Shown here piece after piece: positions 11,635 through 64,000 of a stretch of DNA of 64,000 bases (positions are counted from its first letter, which is position 1; every line of letters begins with the position of its first letter). The stretch lies in UHGV virus genome UHGV-0120889; one strand, given 5' to 3'. A model generated the notes under the pieces. That model worked only from the letters and a program-made list of their open reading frames with translations. It did not search any database and had not been told where the DNA came from. The position numbers were made by a program, and so were the translations under genes. This stretch comes from a virus.

Positions 11635-11717
11635 GTGTCCGTATCACGGACAGTTAGTGTCCGTATTACGGACAGATGTGTCCGCGTGACGGACAGTAGT
11701 GTCCGTATCACGGACAG
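11635..11717. repeat. array of four tandem palindromic 19-bp iterons GTGTCCG(T/C)NTNACGGACAG, period 21-22 bp, next to AT-rich tract 11589-11634
   Basis: Units start at 11635, 11657, 11678, 11699; each is an inverted repeat GTCCGT..ACGGAC. Direct observation. Confidence 0.85.
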
Positions 11718-11783
11718 TTACTAACCTCTGTTCCAGAGTGAACATAAAACATACGAATCCTTATAGTACAGATATTTAAGTTT

Positions 11784-18828: not shown

Positions 18829-19293
18829 GTGGAAGACGGACGTTTAATGAGGTCTGAACGCAGGCTTATTGTGCAACTGATCCCAGAAACAGCTTGGTAT
18901 AATAACCTCCGAAACGCTGTGAAGAAGAGTGAGTGGGATAAGATCCGTAAGAAGTGCTACAGAGAGGCAAACTACACTTGCGAGGTGTGCGGCGGTAAAG
19001 GCAGCAAACATCCAGTGGAGTGTCATGAACTTTACACTTTCGAAGAGGGAGTGATCCGGCTTGTCGGACTGATAGCGTTGTGCCCAGATTGTCACACATC
19101 GGTACATCCTGGATTAGCAAATATCCGTGGAAAGTATGCTCAGGCAGTTAATCAGTTGGCTAAGGTGAATAAGATCACCAGAGGTATGGCAGAGGCGTAT
19201 TACCGAGACTGCTTTGCAGAGTGGCGCGAGCTTAGTAAAGTTCCAGAATGGAAGACTGACTTTTCGTGGATAGAGGGTTACCTTGATAGCTAA
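18829..19293 (+). CDS. zinc-finger protein, possible HNH-like nuclease
   Basis: CEVCGGKG...HPVECHELY...CPDCHTSVH resembles CxxC-H-H-CxxC spacing. Confidence 0.35.
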   Translation: MEDGRLMRSERRLIVQLIPETAWYNNLRNAVKKSEWDKIRKKCYREANYTCEVCGGKGSKHPVECHELYTFEEGVIRLVGLIALCPDCHTSVHPGLANIRGKYAQAVNQLAKVNKITRGMAEAYYRDCFAEWRELSKVPEWKTDFSWIEGYLDS

Positions 19294-19576
19294 GAGATCT
19301 GTAAAAGAGAAATTCGATAAGACAGCTTTTGTATTCGATACACCTCTGGACGATATCATCAGGGGTATGCAAGCCTTGTATCGGAAGGCTGAATCTGAGC
19401 AGTTGTCTGAATCAGAACTTTACTGGCTTGGTTGGTGGGAGTTAAACCTGCCTAAAGCTGAAAGCTCTTGTCTGAGAACTGTTAAAACGTGCGCCCAAGA
19501 AAACGCTGCACTTGGAATCTACCACAAAAGGAAAAGATCAACAAAAAGCTCTCCAAGAAAGACTAAAAAGTCTTGA
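19283..19576 (+). CDS. hypothetical protein
   Basis: 97 aa ORF. Confidence 0.3.
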   Translation: MIAKRSVKEKFDKTAFVFDTPLDDIIRGMQALYRKAESEQLSESELYWLGWWELNLPKAESSCLRTVKTCAQENAALGIYHKRKRSTKSSPRKTKKS

Positions 19577-50638: not shown

Positions 50639-53102
50639 CACACAATTAGCTGCCCGGCTAAAGTGCTGGAAGCACCTATAACACATCTTTCAACTAAATT
50701 TCCTACCACCACAATCACTTACCTCCCACACATGACTGTTTGCTTGTTTAGTGAGCAGTCATGCCTTGACATTCTTGCCTATCTTGATAAAATTAAGTTC
50801 TTCTCTTTTCTTTTACCGAGTAATTCGGGTTTTCTGTTCTCTTCGGTTTGAAGGGGTATGGAGATACACCTGAGTGAACAGGGTGAACAACCGAACCTTT
50901 GGCTATGGCATTAGCATGGCGAAGCGGACGGGTGACGAAAGAGGGGCCGGAGGACACCAGTCACTGCCATATGATATATGGGTGATAACCTGAAGAGTCT
51001 GAATAAGTGTTTAAGTACCAGTCAGAGGAAAAGGTGAATGGTAGCCGAAGGGGGAGGGGGGTTTCTTGTATCTTTAATTTGTATATTATGTATACACTTG
51101 TAAACCAACACCATCTGAATTTGTTTACCACAGAAAGCGGATAGAGACAAATATTACCTATTAAACTTGAATTATTTATAGAAAATACCACAACACCACT
51201 TAAGTATTTGATTTTACACATAAATCCTACAGATATTCACCCTCCATATTTAACATACTTGTAACATATTCCATACTCTACCTGTCTGATCAATTTCCCC
51301 AACTACACCCACCATATTTTCCCTGTCTGTACCACCCCTGACCCGCCGGGAGTCCCGTCATATCTGGCTTTCCAGCAAATATCACACCCACAAATATCAT
51401 TGCCTGAAGAGGGTTTCATCCCATAATACATGCCTTACCTGAAGAGCGCTTCATACACCACGTAAATTTTTTAATTGACCCCCTCCCCGCCGCCGGAGAG
51501 GTTGTCTTTTCCCACACAGACCTGAAGAGTCAGTCAGAAATATCTGAATGGACCCAATTCTGCCCTGTCATGAGCGGTAGCGACTGGAGTGCTGCCAGGC
51601 GGACGAAATGGGAATACTTCTCATTCTTATAATAATTCTCAAATATCGAGGCAGTGAGGAAAATTAATAGGTGAGGCCGTTCACACAGTGGCACAACATT
51701 TGCAACCTATCTTGTGGGGGTGAATGAGAATACCTATCATTGTGAGAATAGTTATCATTACGGGCAATTTAACATAATACCCATTATGCGCACCACTGGC
51801 GATCCATACAGGGATTGATAACATGAGTTACAGTTTACGCATATAACAATCATATTTCTTACTATTTGTGTGGGATATAGTTAGCAGCCGATAGATTAGA
51901 TATTGACCTGTGGACTTCCAACCATCTAGACGTCTAAACGCCCACACAACAAGGATTATACATACATTACTGAATGTAAACAGGGCCGCAAAAATGCTAC
52001 CATACCAGTTTGTAAATTTTTCATGCAGCACTTGACAAAGAGGAGGAAAACTTGTCTGACATAATGTGACCTAACTGACACAACATGACACTTTTACACA
52101 CCTATTAGTTTACACACTGGATTGTTTACATTCCTGATTGTTCACATGCTAACCATTTACATGATTGACTGTTTACACACCGATAATCAGCCATGCCATT
52201 CGTTTGCATGACAATAATTATACATGACAATAATCGCACTGATTATAATTAGCATGACATAATATAAAAGCAGGGCAACTATTAGCAGATCTATAGTTGC
52301 CTTGCTTGTCATGTCATGATTAACTAAATACAAGGCAACTATGATCTGATTAATAGTTTGCAGACAAACTATCACGGGGGTGATGGTTACTGCTTTTATA
52401 TTATGTCGCGACTCCGTCGCGCCATGCCATTCGTTTGCATAGTTGCCTTATTGTTACAGGTAAAATAATTGTATTGTTAATTATTTCTTATCTTTCTATT
52501 AGTCATCTAATGATTCCAGTTAGTATAGTAACGTACAGTAAACATTAGACGACTAAAGATTTCTCTGCTTATGATAACCTAACGTGACAATTTCAGACTG
52601 TTTACGAAAAATGTTGACACCTGAGCTGATTTATGTTATGCAGTTTACACGAATAATTATTTTATGCAGGTATTGACTATTCCGTTATTCTATGGTTGGA
52701 ATAAATACTTAGCAGACTATAGAATGGTGAGCGTACGTAAATTCTGAGATCTGTCGGCTATAGTTATACTCGATTTTTCACGTAGAACACGCTTTTTGGT
52801 TTGTGTAAGTGTATGACTTATAAAGATTTTTAGTTGTTGACAAGATATTGGAGATGTGCATCAGATTAAATTTTGTGCAATAGCTACATTACGTGCACTT
52901 TTGGAAGAAAAAACGTGTAAAAATGGCCCTGCTACCACACAATGAAAGATTATGCAATAGTTATTTTATATGTATATTTGTACAGTGTGTGGGATTAATG
53001 GCTAGTCAATTATTCCACTTGCCAGGTAGGGCCGTTTATGGTAGGAGAAGAGCAGACAAAAAGAAAGGGGCCTTTAAGCCCCTTGATAATTCAATTAAGA
53101 AA

Positions 53103-54263: not shown

Positions 54264-54480
54264 AGTGTTTTCCTCTCTCCTGGTTGTTGTGTGGGCACTT
54301 TTGCCCCTTCAAGATAAATGTTACCTCACCCCATGGCAGATGTCAACGGTTTTTATAGTTCTTATATGACAGGCAGGCCCGGTGATTGTCTCCCCCTGTT
54401 CCCAAGTGCCGCCCGTTTAATAAGAATAGCAAAAGGGGCCGAACAAGTCAACCCCAAAATCAGTACCAAAACACTTTTAT

Positions 54481-54792
54481 TTATACGGTCCGATCATTGG
54501 CCTTTGTCCAGGACCTGGCGATCCGTTTCCCGGTCACCTGGAACGGAGGCTGCATTGTGTGTAATGAGTCCAGAGTAAGGGAGGACCGTTTACGGCGTAT
54601 CTTCAGGATCGCTAACGTATTGTCCATCTCACGGCCAGGTCCTGGGCGGTATGGTGTGCCTCCAGCGTTAAGGTTGATGATCTCATGTATTGAGATCCGG
54701 CGTTGTTTTGCTTCCGCATCTTTGAAGATAGCCAGCGGAGGCGCTATGCGTTGCCGATACCAATCTAAAACGGTTGGCGTAATAGCGATCAT
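54481..54792 (-). CDS. hypothetical protein (coding status uncertain; GC-rich locus)
   Basis: ATG overlaps stop of upstream gene (ATGA), but region also carries 11-bp inverted repeats CCAGGACCTGG/CCAGGTCCTGG (54507-54517 and 54631-54641). Confidence 0.3.
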   Translation of the reverse strand: MIAITPTVLDWYRQRIAPPLAIFKDAEAKQRRISIHEIINLNAGGTPYRPGPGREMDNTLAILKIRRKRSSLTLDSLHTMQPPFQVTGKRIARSWTKANDRTV

Positions 54793-54980
54793 ATTTTACC
54801 CCCTATGTAGTCCGGTCGGTTTTTCTCTGTCATACGCTTAAGCAATTCTTGCATGTTGCTTATGGCTTGTAGTGTATCCTCTTCAAGGGATGAATCAAGA
54901 TAATCAGGATCATTCTTCACCTTGCAATGATTATGATAACGCAGTACCGCCAGTACTTTTTTAACTTCTTCCGCTGTCAT
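54789..54980 (-). CDS. hypothetical protein
   Basis: 63 aa. Confidence 0.35.
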   Translation of the reverse strand: MTAEEVKKVLAVLRYHNHCKVKNDPDYLDSSLEEDTLQAISNMQELLKRMTEKNRPDYIGGKI

Positions 54981-54988
54981 TATCGCGC

Positions 54989-55123
54989 CTAAAACAATGA
55001 GTTAATATATAACACCAGATCGCTGACTACCAGGACAACATTAATCAGCACATACCTAACCATAAAGGGAAAGATCGCCAACATTGCCGCCACGATCCCC
55101 ATGGTAATAATTATCTTTCTCAT
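54989..55123 (-). CDS. micro-ORF encoding 44-aa hydrophobic peptide
   Basis: MRKIIITMGIVAAMLAIFPFMVRYVLINVVLVVSDLVLYINSLF; starts 2 nt after upstream stop. Confidence 0.3.
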   Translation of the reverse strand: MRKIIITMGIVAAMLAIFPFMVRYVLINVVLVVSDLVLYINSLF

Positions 55124-55125
55124 GG

Positions 55126-55410
55126 TTAACGGTTCACGTAAGTTTTCCCGTTTACGGTTATCGGCAGATCCTCCAGGTCTGGATCTTCTTTAAGGTCGTG
55201 AGCAAGTTCACCGCACCGAACGCCCTCGAATCCGTAGTACTCTGTCGTGCCATCCTGGAAAGTTTTAGCGGCAAGGCATAGGCGATAAGTAACACCGATT
55301 TGATTGACGGCATGGATATCAGTTAGATCTACCTCTTTTGCCAGCTCTTTGGCCATTACAGGCGCATTAAGTCCAACAACCAGGGCAACCACTGCGATCA
55401 TCTTTTTCAT
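55126..55410 (-). CDS. secreted/periplasmic protein
   Basis: N-terminal signal peptide MKKMIAVVALVVGLNAPVMA. Confidence 0.45.
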   Translation of the reverse strand: MKKMIAVVALVVGLNAPVMAKELAKEVDLTDIHAVNQIGVTYRLCLAAKTFQDGTTEYYGFEGVRCGELAHDLKEDPDLEDLPITVNGKTYVNR

Positions 55411-55541
55411 TGTATCTATCCTCTTTCTGCTACGTTTAAGGCGGCGGCAACCGCCTGTTTATGCTTTGTTGGTTAATTTTCGGGTATCGGTATAAATTAA
55501 ACTATGCTGTACGCTCAACTATAACAACGGCTTGAGGGATC

Positions 55542-55718
55542 TCACCTTCCACCACTATCAAGGCTTTTTTTCTGCGTAATGGATATCTTTACCCGCTTCA
55601 GCGTGGCGGTAAAGTCTTTCATTTCGTCGCGTGGTGTTTTAGTGCAATGCCAGATCTCAGGCTTACCTATTTGCAAGCCGCGTAAAAATTCTGTTTTTCC
55701 TGTTTTGTTAGTGATCAT
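55542..55718 (-). CDS. hypothetical small protein (58 aa)
   Basis: Hand-translated minus-strand ORF MITNKTGKTEFLRGLQIGKPEIWHCTK...; below track cutoff. Confidence 0.3.
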   Translation of the reverse strand: MITNKTGKTEFLRGLQIGKPEIWHCTKTPRDEMKDFTATLKRVKISITQKKSLDSGGR

Positions 55719-55727
55719 TTGCCAACC

Positions 55728-55832
55728 TCACCCGATACCGTTGGAAGACAAGATCACATTAGCCATGGTTGCAATCAGGCCAATACCCAGGGTAATAACC
55801 AGGATCACCGCATCAATTAATTTCTGTTTCAT
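55728..55832 (-). CDS. micro-ORF encoding 34-aa hydrophobic peptide
   Basis: MKQKLIDAVILVITLGIGLIATMANVILSSNGIG with RBS AGAGGAA. Confidence 0.3.
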   Translation of the reverse strand: MKQKLIDAVILVITLGIGLIATMANVILSSNGIG

Positions 55833-55922
55833 TTTGTTTTCCTCTTCTTGTTCCAGGTGGCGGACCATTCCACCGCCTTATGTATTATGCTTTGTAAGAT
55901 GGTTGTTTGTTTTCAAACTATT

Positions 55923-56102
55923 TTAACGATAATCATCGTACGCTTTATTAACCTGGCGAATATAACATTCAAAAGCCAGATCAATAGATTTATATTCACG
56001 GATATACTCACCATAGGAAACCACATACATTTCTATAGCTTCCTCATATGCGAGGAGAATAGAATCCAAGCCTACGATCTCAGTCTTTGCAATAATAGCC
56101 AT
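55923..56102 (-). CDS. hypothetical small protein (59 aa)
   Basis: MAIIAKTEIVGLDSILLAYEEAIEMYVVSYGEYIREYKSIDLAFECYIRQVNKAYDDYR with RBS AAGAGGA. Confidence 0.4.
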   Translation of the reverse strand: MAIIAKTEIVGLDSILLAYEEAIEMYVVSYGEYIREYKSIDLAFECYIRQVNKAYDDYR

Positions 56103-56173
56103 GATTTTTATCCTCTTTGTGGTTGGTGGGGCTTGCCCCTTTGATTTATATACTACAGTCTTATATGGTCATG

Positions 56174-56407
56174 TCAACTATTTTCAAAAAATTTTTCTGC
56201 TGTGATATTTTTCCCGGTCGGATTTGCTACTTTCAAAATTCTATCATGAACCGGACGCCCGAAAGAATAAGATCCGTATACAGTAAACCAATAATCGCCG
56301 TCAGGTTGTACTATTACCGCCGCATATGGTACGCCTTTTTCGTTTTTGCTGACAAAATAGATCACATTGCCATTAATAGCCTCAGCGCGTTTAATTTGTT
56401 CCATCAT
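56174..56407 (-). CDS. hypothetical protein
   Basis: 77 aa. Confidence 0.4.
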   Translation of the reverse strand: MMEQIKRAEAINGNVIYFVSKNEKGVPYAAVIVQPDGDYWFTVYGSYSFGRPVHDRILKVANPTGKNITAEKFFENS

Positions 56408-56461
56408 GATGATTTACCTCTCTTTATTTTCATAATTGGGGCCGAAAAGGCCCCACCAGGT

Positions 56462-56746
56462 TTATTTATTGATAGCGTGCAGCGGGAAAGGTACTCCAGG
56501 TTGATAGATAACTTTTACAACCTCATCAGGGCAAAAGAAATTGCAGAATTCACCCTGATAAGCCTCATCCTCTTTCAATTCTTCATCAACATACTCAAAA
56601 AAGTAGTCGATGCTTGGATAATCCTGGCCGGGATTATAGTCTACCATCGTTAATAACAATTCTTGATCATTCCGTAGGATATGCATACCCGCTTTTAAGT
56701 ATTTTGCTTCCATTTCCACTACATCGCCAACGGTGACAATAGCCAT
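56462..56746 (-). CDS. hypothetical protein
   Basis: 94 aa acidic. Confidence 0.4.
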   Translation of the reverse strand: MAIVTVGDVVEMEAKYLKAGMHILRNDQELLLTMVDYNPGQDYPSIDYFFEYVDEELKEDEAYQGEFCNFFCPDEVVKVIYQPGVPFPLHAINK

Positions 56747-56947
56747 GATTTTAACTCCTATCTATCCGGTTAATGATTGGGGGCCGCCCCCCTGACACGT
56801 CCTATTATCCATATTGTAGGACTTGATGCAAGTACTTCTTTAAAAATTTTTTAAGCGCCTTGGGGCCGCTGTAACGCTAAAATAATAAAGGCCATGCAAC
56901 CGCATAGCCTTTATGTGATTATATCGCTGCAGGCCCTGCCTGGGGCC

Positions 56948-57298
56948 TTATTTTGCATTCTTGCCTGTATTGCCGCCACGGTACCAGCGTTTGCGGTGAA
57001 AATGGTAATAATCACCCTCGGCATTAAACATCAGATGATTTTCAATAACCAGCTTACGAAGGTGGGCCGGATCTTGTTCCATTCTTGCCAGATTCCGGCG
57101 GCTGTTACGTAAGCGTATAAATTCCATATTCAGGCCGTTGATTGCAGCATGGATGTCAAAGTAACCCCCTTTGAGACGTTCACGCATGGCGTTAAGCTCA
57201 ACACAATATGCAGATTTCTCACAAATCAAGGTATTAGCCAGGGCGCGGACCTGGGCAAGGGGGTTAAGCTCATTAAGGTAATATAGTTTGACTTTCAT
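56948..57298 (-). CDS. hypothetical protein
   Basis: 116 aa basic. Confidence 0.4.
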   Translation of the reverse strand: MKVKLYYLNELNPLAQVRALANTLICEKSAYCVELNAMRERLKGGYFDIHAAINGLNMEFIRLRNSRRNLARMEQDPAHLRKLVIENHLMFNAEGDYYHFHRKRWYRGGNTGKNAK

Positions 57299-57315
57299 AA
57301 AATCACCTGCTGAAA

Positions 57316-57636
57316 TTAGTTTGAGAAAACATCGTTCACAATAGCGATCACAATGCCGCCCACCTTGTCACGGTCAACAATGCACAAATCGCCATGGATC
57401 ATGCGGTAGTCTGGATGATCTTTCACAGAATAGTCAATAAGTGTTTTCTTGTCGTCCAGCTTCGTAACTTCCATTCTCATAACGATATGAGAATCATCAA
57501 AGGCATTATTCCGAAAAGTCATAACCTGACCGCCAGGGCACCCGGTGATCTCCACTTCCACGCCGTCTACGATCTGACCATCAAAGAAATAAAGATTATT
57601 AGCCTGGATAAACATGATCATTACTCCTTTTTGCAC
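57316..57636 (-). CDS. hypothetical protein
   Basis: 106 aa; lies downstream of 44-bp element copy A. Confidence 0.4.
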   Translation of the reverse strand: MQKGVMIMFIQANNLYFFDGQIVDGVEVEITGCPGGQVMTFRNNAFDDSHIVMRMEVTKLDDKKTLIDYSVKDHPDYRMIHGDLCIVDRDKVGGIVIAIVNDVFSN

Positions 57637-57659
57637 TGATTATTTTAACAGGGTTTAAA

Positions 57660-57703
57660 TTTACTTTATTGATGGCCCTGGAGTCAAGGCCATCTAAAAA
57701 TAA
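57660..57703 (-). repeat. conserved 44-bp intergenic element, copy A (palindrome GATGGCC-N10-GGCCATC around TTGACT)
   Basis: Plus-strand TTTACTTTATTGATGGCCCTGGAGTCAAGGCCATCTAAAAATAA; identical to 61405-61448. Confidence 0.85.
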
Positions 57704-57706
57704 ATT

Positions 57707-57907
57707 TTACAGGCCTACAATCTCTTTAATTCGTTTTACTGCTGCCTCAGCGCCTTGAGGGTAAAAATTATGGTAACCAATCACGCGAGTGATACTAATC
57801 GCCGTTTGATGATCTTCATAATACCCCTTGAATATTTCTTGACCATCAACCAGCACAGCAATTTTTTCTTCTTTTTTGAAGTTAATAACGCGGATATTGT
57901 TGCTCAT
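57707..57907 (-). CDS. hypothetical protein
   Basis: 66 aa. Confidence 0.35.
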   Translation of the reverse strand: MSNNIRVINFKKEEKIAVLVDGQEIFKGYYEDHQTAISITRVIGYHNFYPQGAEAAVKRIKEIVGL

Positions 57908-58192
57908 TTTGTTTCCCCTTCTGGAACTTTGTCTGTGTGGTGGGGAGTGTCTCCCCGTTGATTGTTATTATCCATATTCAGGACCGGATTGCAACACCCC
58001 GGAAGAAAAATTTTTTGAAAAAAGTTAGGCCCCCAGGGATCGGGGGCCGTTATCAGTTACTTACAGAGATAAAATACATCCCTACTCCTAACAATATTTC
58101 AAGGGCGATGATCTCAAGCCATACCATAACACGGCGCACCTTATCAGCGCATGGCTTATCCTTGGTTGTCATCGTCTCCCCCTTCCCTCCTG

Positions 58193-58414
58193 TTAGTAGT
58201 GACGTGGTTTACAATGGCCCCCAGGAGTCCTATCACCACGCACACCACAAGAAAAATTATCTCCGCTGTTGTTCGATCCATTGTTATAAAATTCCTCAAG
58301 ATCAGGCCTGAAAATAAAGCGTTCGTTATTGAATCCGTCACGCCAGGCGGCTGGCTTCAAATCTTCACTAAAGGGATTAATTAACGTGGCGTTATTTAAA
58401 CGGCTGGTCCACAT
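58193..58414 (-). CDS. hypothetical protein (overlaps an alternative-frame TM ORF 58156-58341)
   Basis: Two overlapping candidate frames; cannot choose by eye. Confidence 0.25.
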   Translation of the reverse strand: MWTSRLNNATLINPFSEDLKPAAWRDGFNNERFIFRPDLEEFYNNGSNNSGDNFSCGVRGDRTPGGHCKPRHY

Positions 58415-58763
58415 ATTTTCTATTCCTCTCAAATAGGCGATCCGCCTCAGTTAAACATATCTCATGGGCTTGGTCTCTGGTTTTAGCCTCATCAAAAACC
58501 TGTTGTGCCAGGCTGCAGCGTAGGGAGACTGGAAGATCACTATAATAGGCGTTGACAAACGTTTGTGCGTCATACAGGTCGGAAAACACTTTACCCTTTC
58601 TATTATCGCCCTTGTCAACAATTGCAAGGATAACCAATACAATAGTTGCAACCACTCCCAGGAAAATAGATATAACAAACCATAGAAAAGCGGATCTACC
58701 TATCTTGCCAGCGATCCAGGCGTTGAACAAGGCAACTACTACAGCCAAAATAATAAATTCCAT
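58392..58763 (-). CDS. membrane protein (two predicted TM helices)
   Basis: Trimmed to ATG 58761-58763 (MEFIILAVVVALFNAWIAG...FLWFVISIFLGVVATIVLVILAIV). Confidence 0.45.
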   Translation of the reverse strand: MEFIILAVVVALFNAWIAGKIGRSAFLWFVISIFLGVVATIVLVILAIVDKGDNRKGKVFSDLYDAQTFVNAYYSDLPVSLRCSLAQQVFDEAKTRDQAHEICLTEADRLFERNRKYVDQPFK

Positions 58764-58827
58764 TCTATGTACCTCTTTTGCAGTTCTGTTTAACAATAAG
58801 GCGGCAAATATGCCGCCTGTTACCTGA

Positions 58828-59208
58828 TTAAAAATTATCGCCGTAAATCTTTCCGCTTTCTGCCCACACCACCACGCGGGGCATGTTATCCCATACATCT
58901 TGTTTCAGATTTAACGCGTGCAATTCTTCGGTGGTGCTCATACCAGGCACGGGCTGATTGTATACTGCAAAACGACCACCTGCATAATCATAGGCCAGAG
59001 TTAAATCACACTGAATCATCTTTTTGATCATGGCGTTAAGCATAGCGTTAGCCGCATACTGGTCACGTTTTAAAGGCAACTCTTTGATTAGTTTGCGATA
59101 GTTTTCGATATGGTCGCACACTGTTTCACGTGGAAGATCTTTCATATCTTCACGGAATGTAACCAGGTTAAACATAACGGTGTCAATAGCTTTAGTAGTG
59201 TTTTTCAT
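58828..59208 (-). CDS. hypothetical protein
   Basis: 126 aa. Confidence 0.4.
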   Translation of the reverse strand: MKNTTKAIDTVMFNLVTFREDMKDLPRETVCDHIENYRKLIKELPLKRDQYAANAMLNAMIKKMIQCDLTLAYDYAGGRFAVYNQPVPGMSTTEELHALNLKQDVWDNMPRVVVWAESGKIYGDNF

Positions 59209-59298
59209 GATGTTTTCCTCTTTGTTTTGTGTGGGGGCAAACGTCTTGCCCCCTTGAGTTTTAATATAGCAGGTTTTTAGGTTATTGCAACACTTTAT

Positions 59299-59922
59299 TT
59301 ATGAAAAAGTCATCTCACCATATTCATCTACATCAAACCGCCAATCATTGGCCTCGATAAGGCCGATCAGGTTTTCTGCGGTGAACTGTTCTAGATAGGC
59401 CTCCTCCAGGTCTACGTAAACCTTGCGGGATAGCTCCCGTACCGTCTCGGTGATCAGTTCTTCCAGGTCTTCCACTTTGTTTTCTTGTTTGGCGGTCAGA
59501 TCTAGCCAAGTGGTATCAATGTACCCGCTTACAGTGTTTTCATGGCTGTAATGGCTGTACTTGTCGCGTTCAACACTGGCTGATAACTCGCCATCGTGCA
59601 TTGTGCCGAACAAGTGACGAATTGATCGGAACTTGGTCAGGGCCTTTACTTTACGCAAAAATTTTTCTAAATCCACGTTTTCAGCACTGATTGACGCGCC
59701 GTCACCCTGGCACCAAAAGCCGGACCAATGTACTTCGGTATCTTCAAGGCCGTACTCTGGAAAGATATATTCTTTGTAGTGTTCAATTACACTTTCTGCA
59801 AAAAAGTCATCCCCGCTGTGTTCTTCTCTTTCGCGTACCATTTCAATGGCTTTTTCTTTTTGTTCGTCGGTCAGCACGTCGAAAGATAAATTGTAACCTG
59901 TGGTAATGTTAACGGTGGTCAT
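59299..59922 (-). CDS. hypothetical acidic protein
   Basis: 207 aa; largest ORF of the block; no recognised motif. Confidence 0.45.
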   Translation of the reverse strand: MTTVNITTGYNLSFDVLTDEQKEKAIEMVREREEHSGDDFFAESVIEHYKEYIFPEYGLEDTEVHWSGFWCQGDGASISAENVDLEKFLRKVKALTKFRSIRHLFGTMHDGELSASVERDKYSHYSHENTVSGYIDTTWLDLTAKQENKVEDLEELITETVRELSRKVYVDLEEAYLEQFTAENLIGLIEANDWRFDVDEYGEMTFS

Positions 59923-59996
59923 GATATTTTCTCCTGTTTTCTTTGTTAGTGGCGGTAAGTTTTCCCGCCTGTGTGTTTAATTATACTTATTGAGAT

Positions 59997-60257
59997 TTAC
60001 TTGTCAACACTATTTTTTAAATTATTGTGGCGCAAAATGTTTAAAATCTCCTCAACGTCATCAACACGGCGGCAATTTTTAAACGCTACCAATTGCCCCA
60101 TGATTTTAATCACTGGGCGGCCTTGCCAGTGCCCCTGGAGAAAGCGCGCCTTGACTTTATCGGTGGAACTATCACGCCACCAAATGGCCTTGTTGTTGCA
60201 GTAGTAAAAATTATTCAGGACAACATCAACTTTATCAAAATTTTTTAATTTACGCAT
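59997..60257 (-). CDS. hypothetical protein
   Basis: 86 aa. Confidence 0.4.
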   Translation of the reverse strand: MRKLKNFDKVDVVLNNFYYCNNKAIWWRDSSTDKVKARFLQGHWQGRPVIKIMGQLVAFKNCRRVDDVEEILNILRHNNLKNSVDK

Positions 60258-60498
60258 GGCGTTTACTCCTTTCTCTCTTTGATGTGGTTAGTATAGCTAA
60301 CCTGTTTAAGATGTCAAGCTTTAAATAAAATCACTGTCAATGATATTTTTAACGCCATAAAACGGCCCTAAGCGATGTTTTCAGGTTAAAGGGGGGCGAT
60401 TGCATAGGTGGGGCCTTTTTGGCGCTTACAGGGCCAACCAGGGGCGCTATTCGTAGGATAGAAATAAAAAGCCCCGCACAATGGCGGGGCGTTGGTTG

Positions 60499-60696
60499 TT
60501 ATTTGTCTTTATGGCGGTATCGTTCTGCCTGTCGTTCACGTTCCAAAAGTAGGCCAGGCAATTTACGATCATAATGATTTCGCCAGATCTTTCCAAATCT
60601 TTTTGGCTTATTCAGTTTATTGTTACGCTGGCGTCGTTCCGGCAGCTCTTCGGAATCATGAGATCGCTTTACAATCTTCTCAAAATTAATCTTCAT
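60499..60696 (-). CDS. hypothetical basic protein
   Basis: Trimmed from track ORF 60499-60720. Confidence 0.3.
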   Translation of the reverse strand: MKINFEKIVKRSHDSEELPERRQRNNKLNKPKRFGKIWRNHYDRKLPGLLLERERQAERYRHKDK

Positions 60697-61057
60697 ATAT
60701 TCCCCCCTTGCTAACTTCAATATTGGCCTGAATAGCCCGGATACGCCGTTTTATAACCTCCTGATCCTTGCAATCATATCCCCAAAAGTCTACGATTTTT
60801 GCGCCTCCAGCCTTTAGGCGGTATAGTGTTTCTTGCATCTTGTAGGCCGGGATCGGTCGCGGTGTTACCTGGTCGCCCTTCTCATTCTTGTACTTGATAA
60901 TGTAGTCTTCATTGTCGTTGAATATCCAAAATGGGTATTCTGTGAGCGCGTTGCTCTCTTTTTCGTTTTTAGATTGGATCTTGTTTACAATTAAAGCCGT
61001 AGCAATAGCGCCAATAATAAAACTTGCCCCACTGATCATGTTACTTTCTCCTTTCAT
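60686..61057 (-). CDS. hypothetical protein with N-terminal TM anchor
   Basis: N-terminal ISGASFIIGAIATALIV. Confidence 0.4.
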   Translation of the reverse strand: MKGESNMISGASFIIGAIATALIVNKIQSKNEKESNALTEYPFWIFNDNEDYIIKYKNEKGDQVTPRPIPAYKMQETLYRLKAGGAKIVDFWGYDCKDQEVIKRRIRAIQANIEVSKGGIYED

Positions 61058-61115
61058 TGTATTGATAAACTATCTTTATAGATGGCCCTGCTACCAGGAC
61101 CACCGAAAAAACAGT

Positions 61116-61361
61116 TTATTTGACGATACCGACAAAACAGATCCCGCCTTCCCCTATATAGGCAATATCGGTAATTTTATAATTTGTCAAGATCCGCGTG
61201 TTCAGCTCATTAATAAAATCTGTCATCGCGTTGGTGTAGTTGTCTTCCGTGTCTAAGGCATAATCCCAGGTGTAAACCTTTTTACGTCCGAAGCCTTTTA
61301 CCATGATACGGGCGCTTTTGGTGTTGGTAGGGGCATAATATTTGGTGATTAGTGCTGCCAT
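61116..61361 (-). CDS. hypothetical protein
   Basis: 81 aa; downstream of element copy B. Confidence 0.4.
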   Translation of the reverse strand: MAALITKYYAPTNTKSARIMVKGFGRKKVYTWDYALDTEDNYTNAMTDFINELNTRILTNYKITDIAYIGEGGICFVGIVK

Positions 61362-61404
61362 GGTTTTAACTCCTATGCATTAGTTCAGTGTTAACAGTAT
61401 AAAG

Positions 61405-61448
61405 TTTACTTTATTGATGGCCCTGGAGTCAAGGCCATCTAAAAATAA
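61405..61448 (-). repeat. conserved 44-bp intergenic element, copy B
   Basis: Identical to copy A. Confidence 0.85.
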
Positions 61449-61450
61449 TC

Positions 61451-61792
61451 TTACTCGTTTTCTTCCAGCTCCGCAAGCTCTTCTTTTGCTTCTTCTAACT
61501 CTGTCTGTAATTCCTGGTATTCTTCATCGTCCTCAATATCCAGGCTGTCGATGTAGTCGCTAAATCCGCAGCGGTAAGCGATAGGATCTAGCTCCTTGAG
61601 GATACGCGACGGAAGAAAAGAAATGTTTCCGATCATGATTTCGCCGTAGATCTCGTCTAACCATTCATCATAGTTTTCGTCGTACTTGTCCTCGTCGATT
61701 TCAAAGGTATCGATCTTGTTCTCAAGGTCTGCGATCTGTTTTTTCAGTGCGGCAACCTGAATAGCTTTTTCTGCGGCGGTCATAGTAGTCAT
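61451..61792 (-). CDS. hypothetical acidic coiled-coil protein
   Basis: 113 aa. Confidence 0.4.
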   Translation of the reverse strand: MTTMTAAEKAIQVAALKKQIADLENKIDTFEIDEDKYDENYDEWLDEIYGEIMIGNISFLPSRILKELDPIAYRCGFSDYIDSLDIEDDEEYQELQTELEEAKEELAELEENE

Positions 61793-62015
61793 GGTGTTTT
61801 CTCCTTTTGTGTGTTCTGGGAAGTTTTCCCGTTTACGGGTTTAAGTATACCGATCTAAGTTAGCTTGTCAATTAAAAATTTAAGAAAAATTTTGCAAAAC
61901 TGTTAGCGCTACTCATTAACATTTGCGCCAGGATGTAACCGACAACGCAGACGATAATAGTTACCTTTGTGTATTGGCGTGTAGTGCCCATCTTAAAGCC
62001 CCCTTTTTCGCTTAA

Positions 62016-62059
62016 CTGAGATTAGTTTACTTTATCGATGGCCCTGGAGTCAAGGCCAT
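62016..62059 (-). repeat. conserved 44-bp intergenic element, copy C (one mismatch)
   Basis: TTTACTTTATCGATGGCCCTGGAGTCAAGGCCATCTAAAAATAA. Confidence 0.85.
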
Positions 62060-62071
62060 CTAAAAATAAAC

Positions 62072-62476
62072 TCAATAAGTTTTTAGTACTTTCCCGTCCA
62101 ACCTGTCTAGCTGGATCTCAATGGCTGCAGAAAACCTATTATAAACCACGTCGCCCATGGAATCCAACCAGTCTATGACGTTATACACTTGCTCTTTGTT
62201 CTTGCAGGTCCGGATCCGTTTCATGATGTAAGCCGGATCAATATTGGTACTCTCGTTGGTGTTCCCCTGTACCTGGTTTGCCGTATTAGCTACATCTTTA
62301 ATGGCCTTTACCACCACCTGGAAGGGCTTTAAGGTGCCTTTTGCGTTCATCTCACGCGCTTTTGCGGCGCGGTTGTTATAGGTTACACAACGGCGGCAAA
62401 TGTTCACTAAGTGCATGTCAATAATTTTTTCATCGTTTGCCAGTTCGTTCATGATGCGGCGTACGTTCTTATTCAT
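62072..62476 (-). CDS. hypothetical protein
   Basis: 134 aa. Confidence 0.4.
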   Translation of the reverse strand: MNKNVRRIMNELANDEKIIDMHLVNICRRCVTYNNRAAKAREMNAKGTLKPFQVVVKAIKDVANTANQVQGNTNESTNIDPAYIMKRIRTCKNKEQVYNVIDWLDSMGDVVYNRFSAAIEIQLDRLDGKVLKTY

Positions 62477-62558
62477 GATCTTTTTCCTTTGTGCTGGCGG
62501 GAAACATTCCCGCCTTTTGTGTCTAGTTTACTTAAATTTTGCAGCGTGTCAATGATTT

Positions 62559-63218: not shown

Positions 63219-64000
63219 GATTTTTTATCCTCTCTGTTAATTGGTGTGGTGTTGTTCACCTTGCGAGGATAAGAATAACAAGAACTGTCCGAGCTGTCAA
63301 CCATTAGTTAAAATTATTTTTTGGGTAGAATTCTCCAGCCGCCGCCCCTGCCAGGTTAACCATCATTTTTCGTACTCTTCTTTATGTTCCAACGCTCCCG
63401 CCATAGCCTTTTCAACCAGGGCGATAGCCTCAGCGTCATTAATAGCTACATTTTCCAGGTGGATCATATTACCTTCCATTTTTGTACCTCCTCTTCAATT
63501 GTTACCTATCCTATAGCATAGGCCCACCAGGTTTGCAAGCCTTCATTCTCTCCTACCTGGTCAGTTAGGCCCTGCCAGGCTGGCCCCGCCAGGTTGCAGC
63601 GGTCAGCGCATCAGGTTAGAATTTTTTTTTTTTTTGAAAAGTGTTGACAGCGGCCCCGCCAGGTGGCAAAATATACCTATCGAAAGGACGGCAGGCACCG
63701 GTGACGGGGGAGACAATCACCGGGCCTGCCCGTTATTCTGCAAACGAGAATGATTATCATTCAAAATTCTAAATGAGAACTCCTCGCATTTAATAAATTT
63801 AATTAGCACGCTAATTACCCTCCGTAACAATTTCCTATAAAATAGTATCCACTAAAATATTCCCATATAGAAATTTTAAAAATCCATTTCTGAAAACGAA
63901 AAATCGATTTCGTCCCCAAAAATTTCAGGTCGAGAGCCGGAACGATTTCCAGAAAATCCGATTCAGAAAACGAAAAACAGATCGAGTACTGAGAAATTTA

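Follow-up and report, generated by a model that had tools for sequence, protein, structure and literature searches.

The repeat and its setting

Three near-identical copies of a 44-bp repeat, TTTACTTTAT(T/C)GATGGCCCTGGAGTCAAGGCCATCTAAAAATAA as read on the plus strand, lie between small minus-strand genes of the virus genome UHGV-0120889. The stretch analysed (henceforth, the window) is 64,000 nucleotides long, and the region in question matches rV5-like coliphages (genus Vequintavirus) at 95-99% identity. We refer to the copies as E1, E2, and E3 (Table 1). All three had been picked out in an earlier note made from the letters of this DNA, and all are real; the third, however, begins at 62026 and not at 62016, and the end given for the finding as a whole (62059) was likewise 10 nt too low. 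Dinucleotide-preserving shuffles gave 0 matches to the 44-nt repeat, and identity from copy to copy reaches 46-49 nt, beyond the 44-nt core.

Each repeat starts 2-3 nt past the stop codon of an upstream open reading frame (ORF; 57707..57907, 61451..61792, and 62072..62476), which bears out the placement "a few nucleotides after a stop" that had been described. The distance from the end of the repeat to the next start codon (57615, 61361, and 61991) is 34-44 nt, slightly below the 40-70 bp first proposed. A fourth, diverged copy (E′) is found at 61068-61116 with 65% identity to the repeat. A degenerate relative had been suspected at 61070-61100, and E′ shows that suspicion to be well founded, as it fits both the family frame set out below and a covariance model of the family, with 64 bits. 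A second suspected relative, at 52921-52940, did not hold up: it comes down to a 14-nt fragment that has no 5′ arm and is undetected by the covariance model. This fragment is probably a remnant of the element, without a hairpin.

A conserved hairpin at the end of the upstream gene

As DNA, the window copies do contain the 7-bp palindrome that drew attention to them. On the sense strand, the RNA stem is 10 bp long with one G.U pair, and the A/T flanks also pair. Across the family, the gene-sense strand folds into a two-tier structure: an 11-bp A/U-rich lower stem, then a 2x3 internal loop, and above it a G/C-rich upper stem of 7-10 bp that ends in a free loop. The stem base and its flanks are invariant (YUUUU(A/C)G-(A/G)UGG ... 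CCAUC-N-AUAAAG), and variation is found in the top of the stem and in the unpaired loop (3-16 nt).

We collected 40 distinct sequences in all and built the covariance model from 17 diverse members. When the structure was specified by hand on these 17 members, 97% of cells were paired, compared with 38-54% when the partners were slid by 1-3 columns. RNAalifold independently gives the same two-tier fold, with the lower stem extended to 11 bp through the stop codon, so that the stop codon's final two bases are paired to the end of the -10-like hexamer. In this second structure 95.2% of cells pair (35-54% when slid), seven pairs have changed on both sides, and the covariation score is 0.335, as against no more than 0.084; 0 of 500 shuffles reach 0.335. 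The diverged members, folded singly, also take up this shape (z -4.3 to -7.9), E′ among them with a folding energy of -28.2 kcal/mol and a z of -7.9.

Which strand folds can be read from the wobble pairs. An alignment-free parse of the 40 sequences counts 38 G.U against 5 A.C in the lower stem; in the upper stem the figures, taken from the per-position counts of the same parse, are ~44 and 1, with G.U at no fewer than 10 positions, which makes ~82 to 6 for both stems together. Where the sense strand has a G.U pair, the opposite strand has an A.C mismatch. Because the excess of G.U would become an excess of mismatches there, the sense strand is the folding strand. The covariance model scores ~75 bits on the sense strand versus ~37 on the antisense.

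The element is also fixed in relation to the gene that precedes it. From the end of the stop codon to the upper stem there are 10-12 nt in 36 members out of the 39 preceded by an ORF, and these ORFs are mutually unrelated; from the element to the downstream start codon the distance is variable (21-56 nt). A constant distance on one side with a variable one on the other indicates that the element belongs to the 3′ end of the upstream gene. In alignments of 7-9 Vequintavirus genomes, variable columns number 4 of 44 in E1 versus 78 of 300 in its flanks, and 2 of 44 in E2 versus 58 of 300, where the flanks are mostly coding (19-26% variable columns). Judged by these comparisons, we are fairly confident that a sense-strand structure is under selection and that it is tied to the upstream stop codon. 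It follows from the position of that stop codon inside the lower stem that a terminating ribosome must open this stem.

A probable promoter nested in the hairpin

On the minus strand, each window copy reads TTGACT, 18 nt, and then TAAACT or TAAATT, exactly as the earlier note had it. The arrangement recurs in a part of the family: 19 distinct cores bear TTGAC, all with a 17-18 nt spacer to TAA(A/C)(C/T)T, except that the hexamer is TAAACC in one. TTGAC(A/T) cores occur in four loop architectures (4, 9, ~10, and 16 nt unpaired), and the diverged TTGACA members have the form TTGACA-17-TAA(A/C)CT. In the case of the 16-nt loop, the unpaired bases contain AAAAAAATAGTTGACA, which is the same A-tract plus -35 as in the canonical early promoters of these phages.

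Lineages that lack TTGAC, namely E′, the CCCUGGCGGGG type (at least three sites), the GAUGUGAAA type, and L092, never have T-A at -12/-11. Their lower stems are still paired, via compensating bases beside the stop codon. In this way the -10 covaries with the region beside the stop codon; it shares bases with the lower stem, and the two evolve together. RNA pairing and promoter hexamers thus sit on the same bases, a clear case of two overlapping constraints on one sequence. On sequence grounds, E1-E3 are very likely sigma-70 promoters of the next gene as well.

Near-consensus promoters of the TTGACA-16/17-TATAAT type are also present on the minus strand of this block, at 63300, 63018, 62552, 61871, 60317, 60007, 59290, and 57994. 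Each of these early promoters has a G/C-rich hairpin in the 5′ untranslated region (5′-UTR), ~10-20 nt downstream, and two such 5′-UTR hairpins (55132-55157 and 61813-61838) repeat each other. E1, E2, and E3 are each placed after the first gene downstream of a near-consensus early promoter.

Distribution of the family

The earlier note had suggested looking for the element in related phage genomes, and there it is conserved: the 44-mer occurs in 121 phage records at 348 places, usually three per genome. It is almost never annotated in these records, and the record of phage Gotham carries an automatic PhagePromoter call on the element. In the rV5 genome paper, 33 promoters and 20 terminators are tabulated, and the repeat is absent from that table. 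Rfam has no match at the elements at E values up to 1. Seventeen records named "Campylobacter phage" (e.g., MG065655) are ≥94% identical to the region and carry the element; by sequence, these are rV5-like coliphages.

Within the window, the covariance model finds exactly four members (E1, E2, E3, and E′), and it finds 0 in the rest of the early region of one close relative. More distant members were sought by scanning IMG/VR for the 7-bp arms with any loop, and then IMG/VR together with a metagenome collection for the frame TTTTMGRTGG...CCAYCNATAAAG. Diverged members came from several uncultured contigs of 124-140 kb that are syntenic with the window at ~50% protein identity. In the arm scan of IMG/VR, ~70 of 74 matches were due to chance, and the relevant ones were confined to rV5-like contigs and L079, a distant relative. 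In the metagenome scan most loci failed the covariance model, and true members came only from rV5-like contigs of 130-138 kb.

Outside this group, the covariance model finds 0 members in the whole genome of PVP-SE1 (Seunavirus, another genus of the same subfamily), and BLAST searches of isolates with diverged variants found no matches outside Vequintavirus. The element family is restricted to Vequintavirus and close uncultured relatives, and it is previously undescribed. Some copies are decaying, such as the third copy of Gotham, with a 5-nt deletion, and a copy in L160 in which TTGACT has become TTTACT. The three near-identical copies of the window are young members of an older, diverged family. 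This family, the stop codon within the helix, and the role of the copies in recombination, to which we now turn, go beyond what a single window could reveal.

Recombination at the copies

Two phages, phiWec189 and magaca, are without precisely the 621 bp of the E2-E3 interval, a unit made up of the E3-E2 interval plus one element copy. The left and right blocks of homology overlap on a single element, and this remaining element is chimeric in both phages, with the stop-codon (5′) side of E3 and the -10 (3′) side of E2.

A second event crosses a taxonomic boundary. KKE7M, a Justusliebigvirus (Stephanstirmvirinae), carries a 474-bp module of promoter, gene, and element with 93.9% identity to window positions 61399-61872. 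The homology has exact limits, the TTGACA of the canonical promoter at one end and the -10 of E2 at the other, with no similarity beyond, and according to the covariance model the element in this module is the sole family member in 50 kb of the KKE7M genome. The module records a recent move of a cassette between two phage subfamilies, its boundaries exact to the base. Around the elements of the distant relative L079, genes follow an order unlike that of the window. From these sequence comparisons we hold with high confidence that the near-identical copies act as crossover points for the gain, loss, and exchange of cassettes.

One further genome illustrates how much of the block can be lost. 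Compared with window positions 54387-60551, the rV5 derivative rV5_ev146 (L218) is missing ~6.1 kb of early-block sequence, and ~13 nt are shared at that junction; it is also without 61979-62490, which removes E3. These deletions imply that the phage can grow without much of the early block, two of the three elements included.

Comparison with known systems

Among known systems, the element comes closest in concept to the promoter-early stem-loop (PeSL) of T4-type phages, in which a stem-loop, an A/T tract, and an early promoter are repeated between small genes and shuffled as modules (Arbiol et al. 2010, PMC2839356; Comeau et al. 2014, PMC4122927). Both terminator activity and mini-circles have been shown for PeSLs (PMC2839356, PMC4122927). 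Like a PeSL, the element is a short, repeated intergenic cassette of a stem-loop, a sigma-70-like early promoter (assigned here by sequence comparison), and an A/T-rich tract. It is likewise concentrated in blocks of small genes of unknown function, its copies lie at junctions of indels and replacements, and there are "half" elements in which parts of the promoter have been lost.

The differences are considerable. The phage is a Vequintavirus and not T4-like. The -35 lies inside the stem-loop, the 3′ arm serves as the spacer, and the lower stem supplies the -10 with its 3′ strand, whereas the PeSL stem-loop is upstream of the promoter and separate from it. In addition, the stem base and flanks are conserved in sequence, including the stop codon; there is no U-tract; and a genome has only ~4-6 copies of the element. 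We conclude that it probably works like a PeSL without belonging to the PeSL family. T4-like phages have already provided the general principle of a stem-loop/promoter cassette; the element extends to phages outside that group the notion that regulatory cassettes serve as recombination linkers.

Two other systems deserve mention. The RNase III signals of T7 early mRNA (R1.1; PMC1540722) resemble the element in that both are irregular hairpins between cistrons, roughly two helical turns long and interrupted by an internal loop, on early transcripts made by the host polymerase, and the T7 signals leave a protective 3′ hairpin on the upstream message (PMC1540722). They differ in that there is no sequence similarity, and in that the element can carry a putative promoter at its apex and includes a stop codon in its helix.

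The second is the repetitive extragenic palindromic (REP) sequences of enterobacteria, which are similarly imperfect palindromes just past a stop codon in a transcribed intergenic region. REPs within ~15 nt of the stop codon reportedly affect the terminating ribosome, a result attributed to Liang, Rudd, and Deutscher in 2015. Unlike the element, REPs are chromosomal, have hundreds of copies, a GTAG/CTAC consensus, and RAYT (Y1) transposases, and contain no promoter. They form a structured barrier to 3′ exonucleases, and the decay of REP-containing mRNA needs RNase R or PNPase (PMC12320835).

Interpretation

The reading we favour, with moderate confidence, is that a compact intergenic cassette with two purposes, peculiar to rV5-like phages, has the 44-bp repeat as its core and combines a 3′ hairpin with a restart promoter. 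Read-through transcripts from the strong canonical promoter one gene upstream would fold the ~51-nt hairpin at the end of that gene. There it would define and protect the 3′ end of the upstream message, either as a barrier to 3′ exonucleases or by RNase III-type processing with a single cut. The duplex DNA would serve the next gene as a host sigma-70 promoter, with an A/T run upstream of the 5′ arm, a putative -35 (TTGACT) spelled by the top of the upper stem and the loop, and a putative -10 (TAAAYT) spelled 18 nt downstream by the 3′ strand of the lower stem. Transcripts initiated at the element's promoter would not contain the hairpin. The promoter would restart transcription and thereby insulate each small gene cassette, and the copies, near-identical over 44-49 bp, serve as crossovers at which promoter-gene-hairpin cassettes are deleted, inserted, or exported. 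The specific function of the RNA is put forward more tentatively: our analysis gives somewhat less than an even chance to a hairpin that defines or protects the 3′ end, possibly through RNase III.

If this is true, the early-gene unit becomes testable as a promoter, a 5′ hairpin, a small gene, and a 3′ hairpin with a nested promoter. It is important to remember that rV5-like phages are widely isolated and are used for the biocontrol and therapy of pathogenic E. coli, and that their early transcription has so far only been predicted by consensus scans, which missed the element. In practical terms, the covariance model can be employed in genome annotation, and the elements mark safe junctions for the engineering of early-gene cassettes.

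Several points weigh against this reading and should be kept in mind. The hexamers match the consensus at 9 of 12 positions with an 18-nt spacer, and such matches are common here (48 found versus 33 expected). The association between the -35 and the -10 has few truly independent lineages behind it, roughly ~4 versus 5. No transcriptomic study of the rV5-like phage group was found in the literature. As G.T pairs are tolerated in single-stranded DNA, the strand asymmetry is no strict proof of RNA folding, and the upper stem is only 6-7 bp in some members (6-9 bp in some distant ones). There is no U-run after the hairpin on either strand, the tail being AAUAAAGU on the sense strand and UAAAAAUA on the other; for the coding strand the earlier note had already made this observation, and it stands. 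For the E2-E3 interval, deletion and insertion are indistinguishable. Finally, not every rearrangement involves the elements: rV5_ev146 (one copy), ECML-10, and V18 have deletions that end elsewhere.

Alternative explanations

The alternative that survives best concerns the role of the hairpin, and it refines that step of the favoured reading rather than excluding the reading. According to this alternative, the hairpin is a T7-type RNase III signal: host RNase III would cut read-through early transcripts once, in the internal loop, which would separate the cistrons and leave the upper stem-loop as a protective 3′ end. Substrates of E. coli RNase III typically span two helical turns, which stacked shorter helices may make up; where there is an internal loop, only one strand is cut, and the cuts leave 3′ hairpins that protect against 3′-5′ exonucleases (PMC1540722). 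A helix of ~21-23 bp (11-13 + 10 bp) with a small asymmetric internal loop is what the element offers, in an intercistronic position in an early block read by the host polymerase, and its conservation lies around the internal loop and the stem base (UUUU-A/C-G...C-N-AU-AAAG), with an apex free to vary. However, upper stems are 6-9 bp in some members, and the sequence conservation of the stem base is atypical for an enzyme that is thought to be without positive sequence determinants (PMC1540722). We regard this version as unlikely.

Considerably more speculative is the idea that the conserved frame (stop codon, lower stem, internal loop, and stem base) is the recognition site of a dedicated factor, or of a structure-specific recombination system. 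In the former version, an endonuclease or RNA-binding protein would be gated by the terminating ribosome and would couple the translation of early genes to the processing or decay of their own message. In the latter, promoter-gene-hairpin units would be true mobile cassettes across phage subfamilies, as the KKE7M transfer hints. We consider either to be a long shot.

Could the element instead be a terminator or attenuator of upstream early transcription, as proposed for PeSL stem-loops, possibly with the help of a phage factor? It has a stable G/C stem, PeSL stem-loops are reported to terminate transcription (PMC2839356), and it is placed like the local terminators, a few nt past a stop codon (the canonical ones at 58048, 58818, and 60490 begin 4-9 nt after stops). 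What follows the stem is AAUAAAGUAAAC and not a U-tract, however, and the U run lies upstream of the stem; a scan that calls canonical terminators nearby does not call the element. Since it lacks a U-tract, the hairpin is not a canonical terminator, and we think termination improbable as its function.

An explanation by a sigma-70 promoter only, with the palindrome either incidental or a duplex-DNA operator for a dimeric regulator overlapping the -35, would account for the -35 and -10 hexamers with their conserved spacing and for the PhagePromoter annotation in Gotham. It does not account for members without a -35 (E′ and the CCCUGGCGGGG and GAUGUGAAA types), which keep the hairpin and flanks, nor for pairing maintained by compensatory changes and G.U, which duplex DNA binding does not need, nor for an upstream stop codon that is part of the helix. 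An operator would have two half-sites at a fixed spacing, but an unpaired loop of 3-16 nt lies between the arms. The earlier note had set a promoter with a built-in operator beside an RNA hairpin; comparison and covariation bring promoter and hairpin together, whereas the operator is lost to the varying arm spacing. We rate the promoter-only explanation as quite improbable.

Least probable by our estimate, and very doubtful, is a folded DNA hairpin that serves as the site of a structure-specific recombinase or transposase moving the cassettes (cf. integron attC and REP/RAYT). In its favour are an imperfect palindrome that comes straight after an ORF and has a conserved base but a variable apex, the losses and transfers of cassettes whose boundaries fall exactly at the element, and the tolerance of DNA hairpins for G.T pairs. 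Against it, no recombinase or HUH transposase was found, the flanking genes are without recognisable function, 44-49 bp of identity suffices for ordinary phage homologous recombination, and the second boundary of the KKE7M module is a promoter and not a hairpin.

Two candidates were considered and rejected. A hairpin-specific transposase might have been sought in the "transposase-like" gene of PVP-SE1 and rV5 (window 19283-19576), but it has no Pfam domain and is ~40 kb away. The other was a mini-ORF, ATG...TAA, encoding MALTPGPSIK; in members whose loops differ in length, the conserved nucleotides fall in different frames (MAWILTPGHL, MVGC*), and no Shine-Dalgarno sequence is present.

Coordinates and neighbouring features

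Table 1. Coordinates of the elements, their parts, and associated features in the window; extents of E1-E3 and E′ are those of the covariance model, and the 44-bp repeats are numbered along the plus strand
Feature	Position	Strand	Remarks
E1	57654..57709	-	75.3 bits; 44-bp repeat 57660-57703; hairpin ~57657-57707
E1, upper stem-loop	57671-57694	-	
E1, -35	57687-57682	-	TTGACT
E1, -10	57663-57658	-	TAAATT
E1, stop codon of upstream gene	57709-57707	-	TAA at helix base; gene of 66 amino acids
E2	61399..61454	-	74.0 bits; 44-bp repeat 61405-61448; hairpin ~61402-61452
E2, upper stem-loop	61416-61439	-	
E2, -35	61432-61427	-	TTGACT
E2, -10	61408-61403	-	TAAACT
E2, stop codon of upstream gene	61453-61451	-	TAA; gene of 113 amino acids
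E3	62020..62075	-	73.2 bits; 44-bp repeat 62026-62069; hairpin ~62023-62073
E3, upper stem-loop	62037-62060	-	
E3, -35	62053-62048	-	TTGACT
E3, -10	62029-62024	-	TAAACT
E3, stop codon of upstream gene	62074-62072	-	TGA; gene of 134 amino acids
E′	61064..61119	-	Diverged member without -35; 64.1 bits
E′, structure		-	Upper stem GGUGGUCCUG/CAGGGCCAUC with two G.U pairs; lower stem 13 bp
E′, stop codon of upstream gene	61118-61116	-	TAA inside lower stem; gene of 81 amino acids
E3-E2 interval	61449..62025	-	Genes of 39 amino acids (61872-61991) and 113 amino acids (61451-61792)
Canonical promoter in E3-E2 interval	61871-61844	-	TTGACA-16-TATACT, with 5′-UTR hairpin
14-nt fragment	52923..52936	-	GGTAGCAGGGCCAT; same as loop and 3′ arm of E′; outside gene block

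The genes flanking the elements have no recognisable function that we could find, apart from a nearby match to the phage T7 gene 1.1 family. This is a protein of 65 amino acids encoded on the minus strand at 60499-60696 (PF08200, E 2e-11), the sole Pfam match near the elements.

A gene-free gap of ~150 nt (60320-60470) lies between a strong, bidirectional-looking terminator (60471-60490) and the early promoter at 60317. Its G/C content is relatively high, and a small RNA or some other signal could lie in it.

Other repeats were seen in the window. At its edge (63879-63999), two 47-nt direct repeats (AAAATCCATTTCTGAAAACGAAAAATCGATTTCG...) are found 74 nt apart, the first overlapping a long A/T-rich hairpin. 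At 11635-11720 there are four tandem units of 21-22 nt (GTGTCCGTATCACGGACAGTTA and variants), each containing an 8-bp palindrome (GTGTCCGT/ACGGACAC-like); these look like an array of binding sites or small hairpins.

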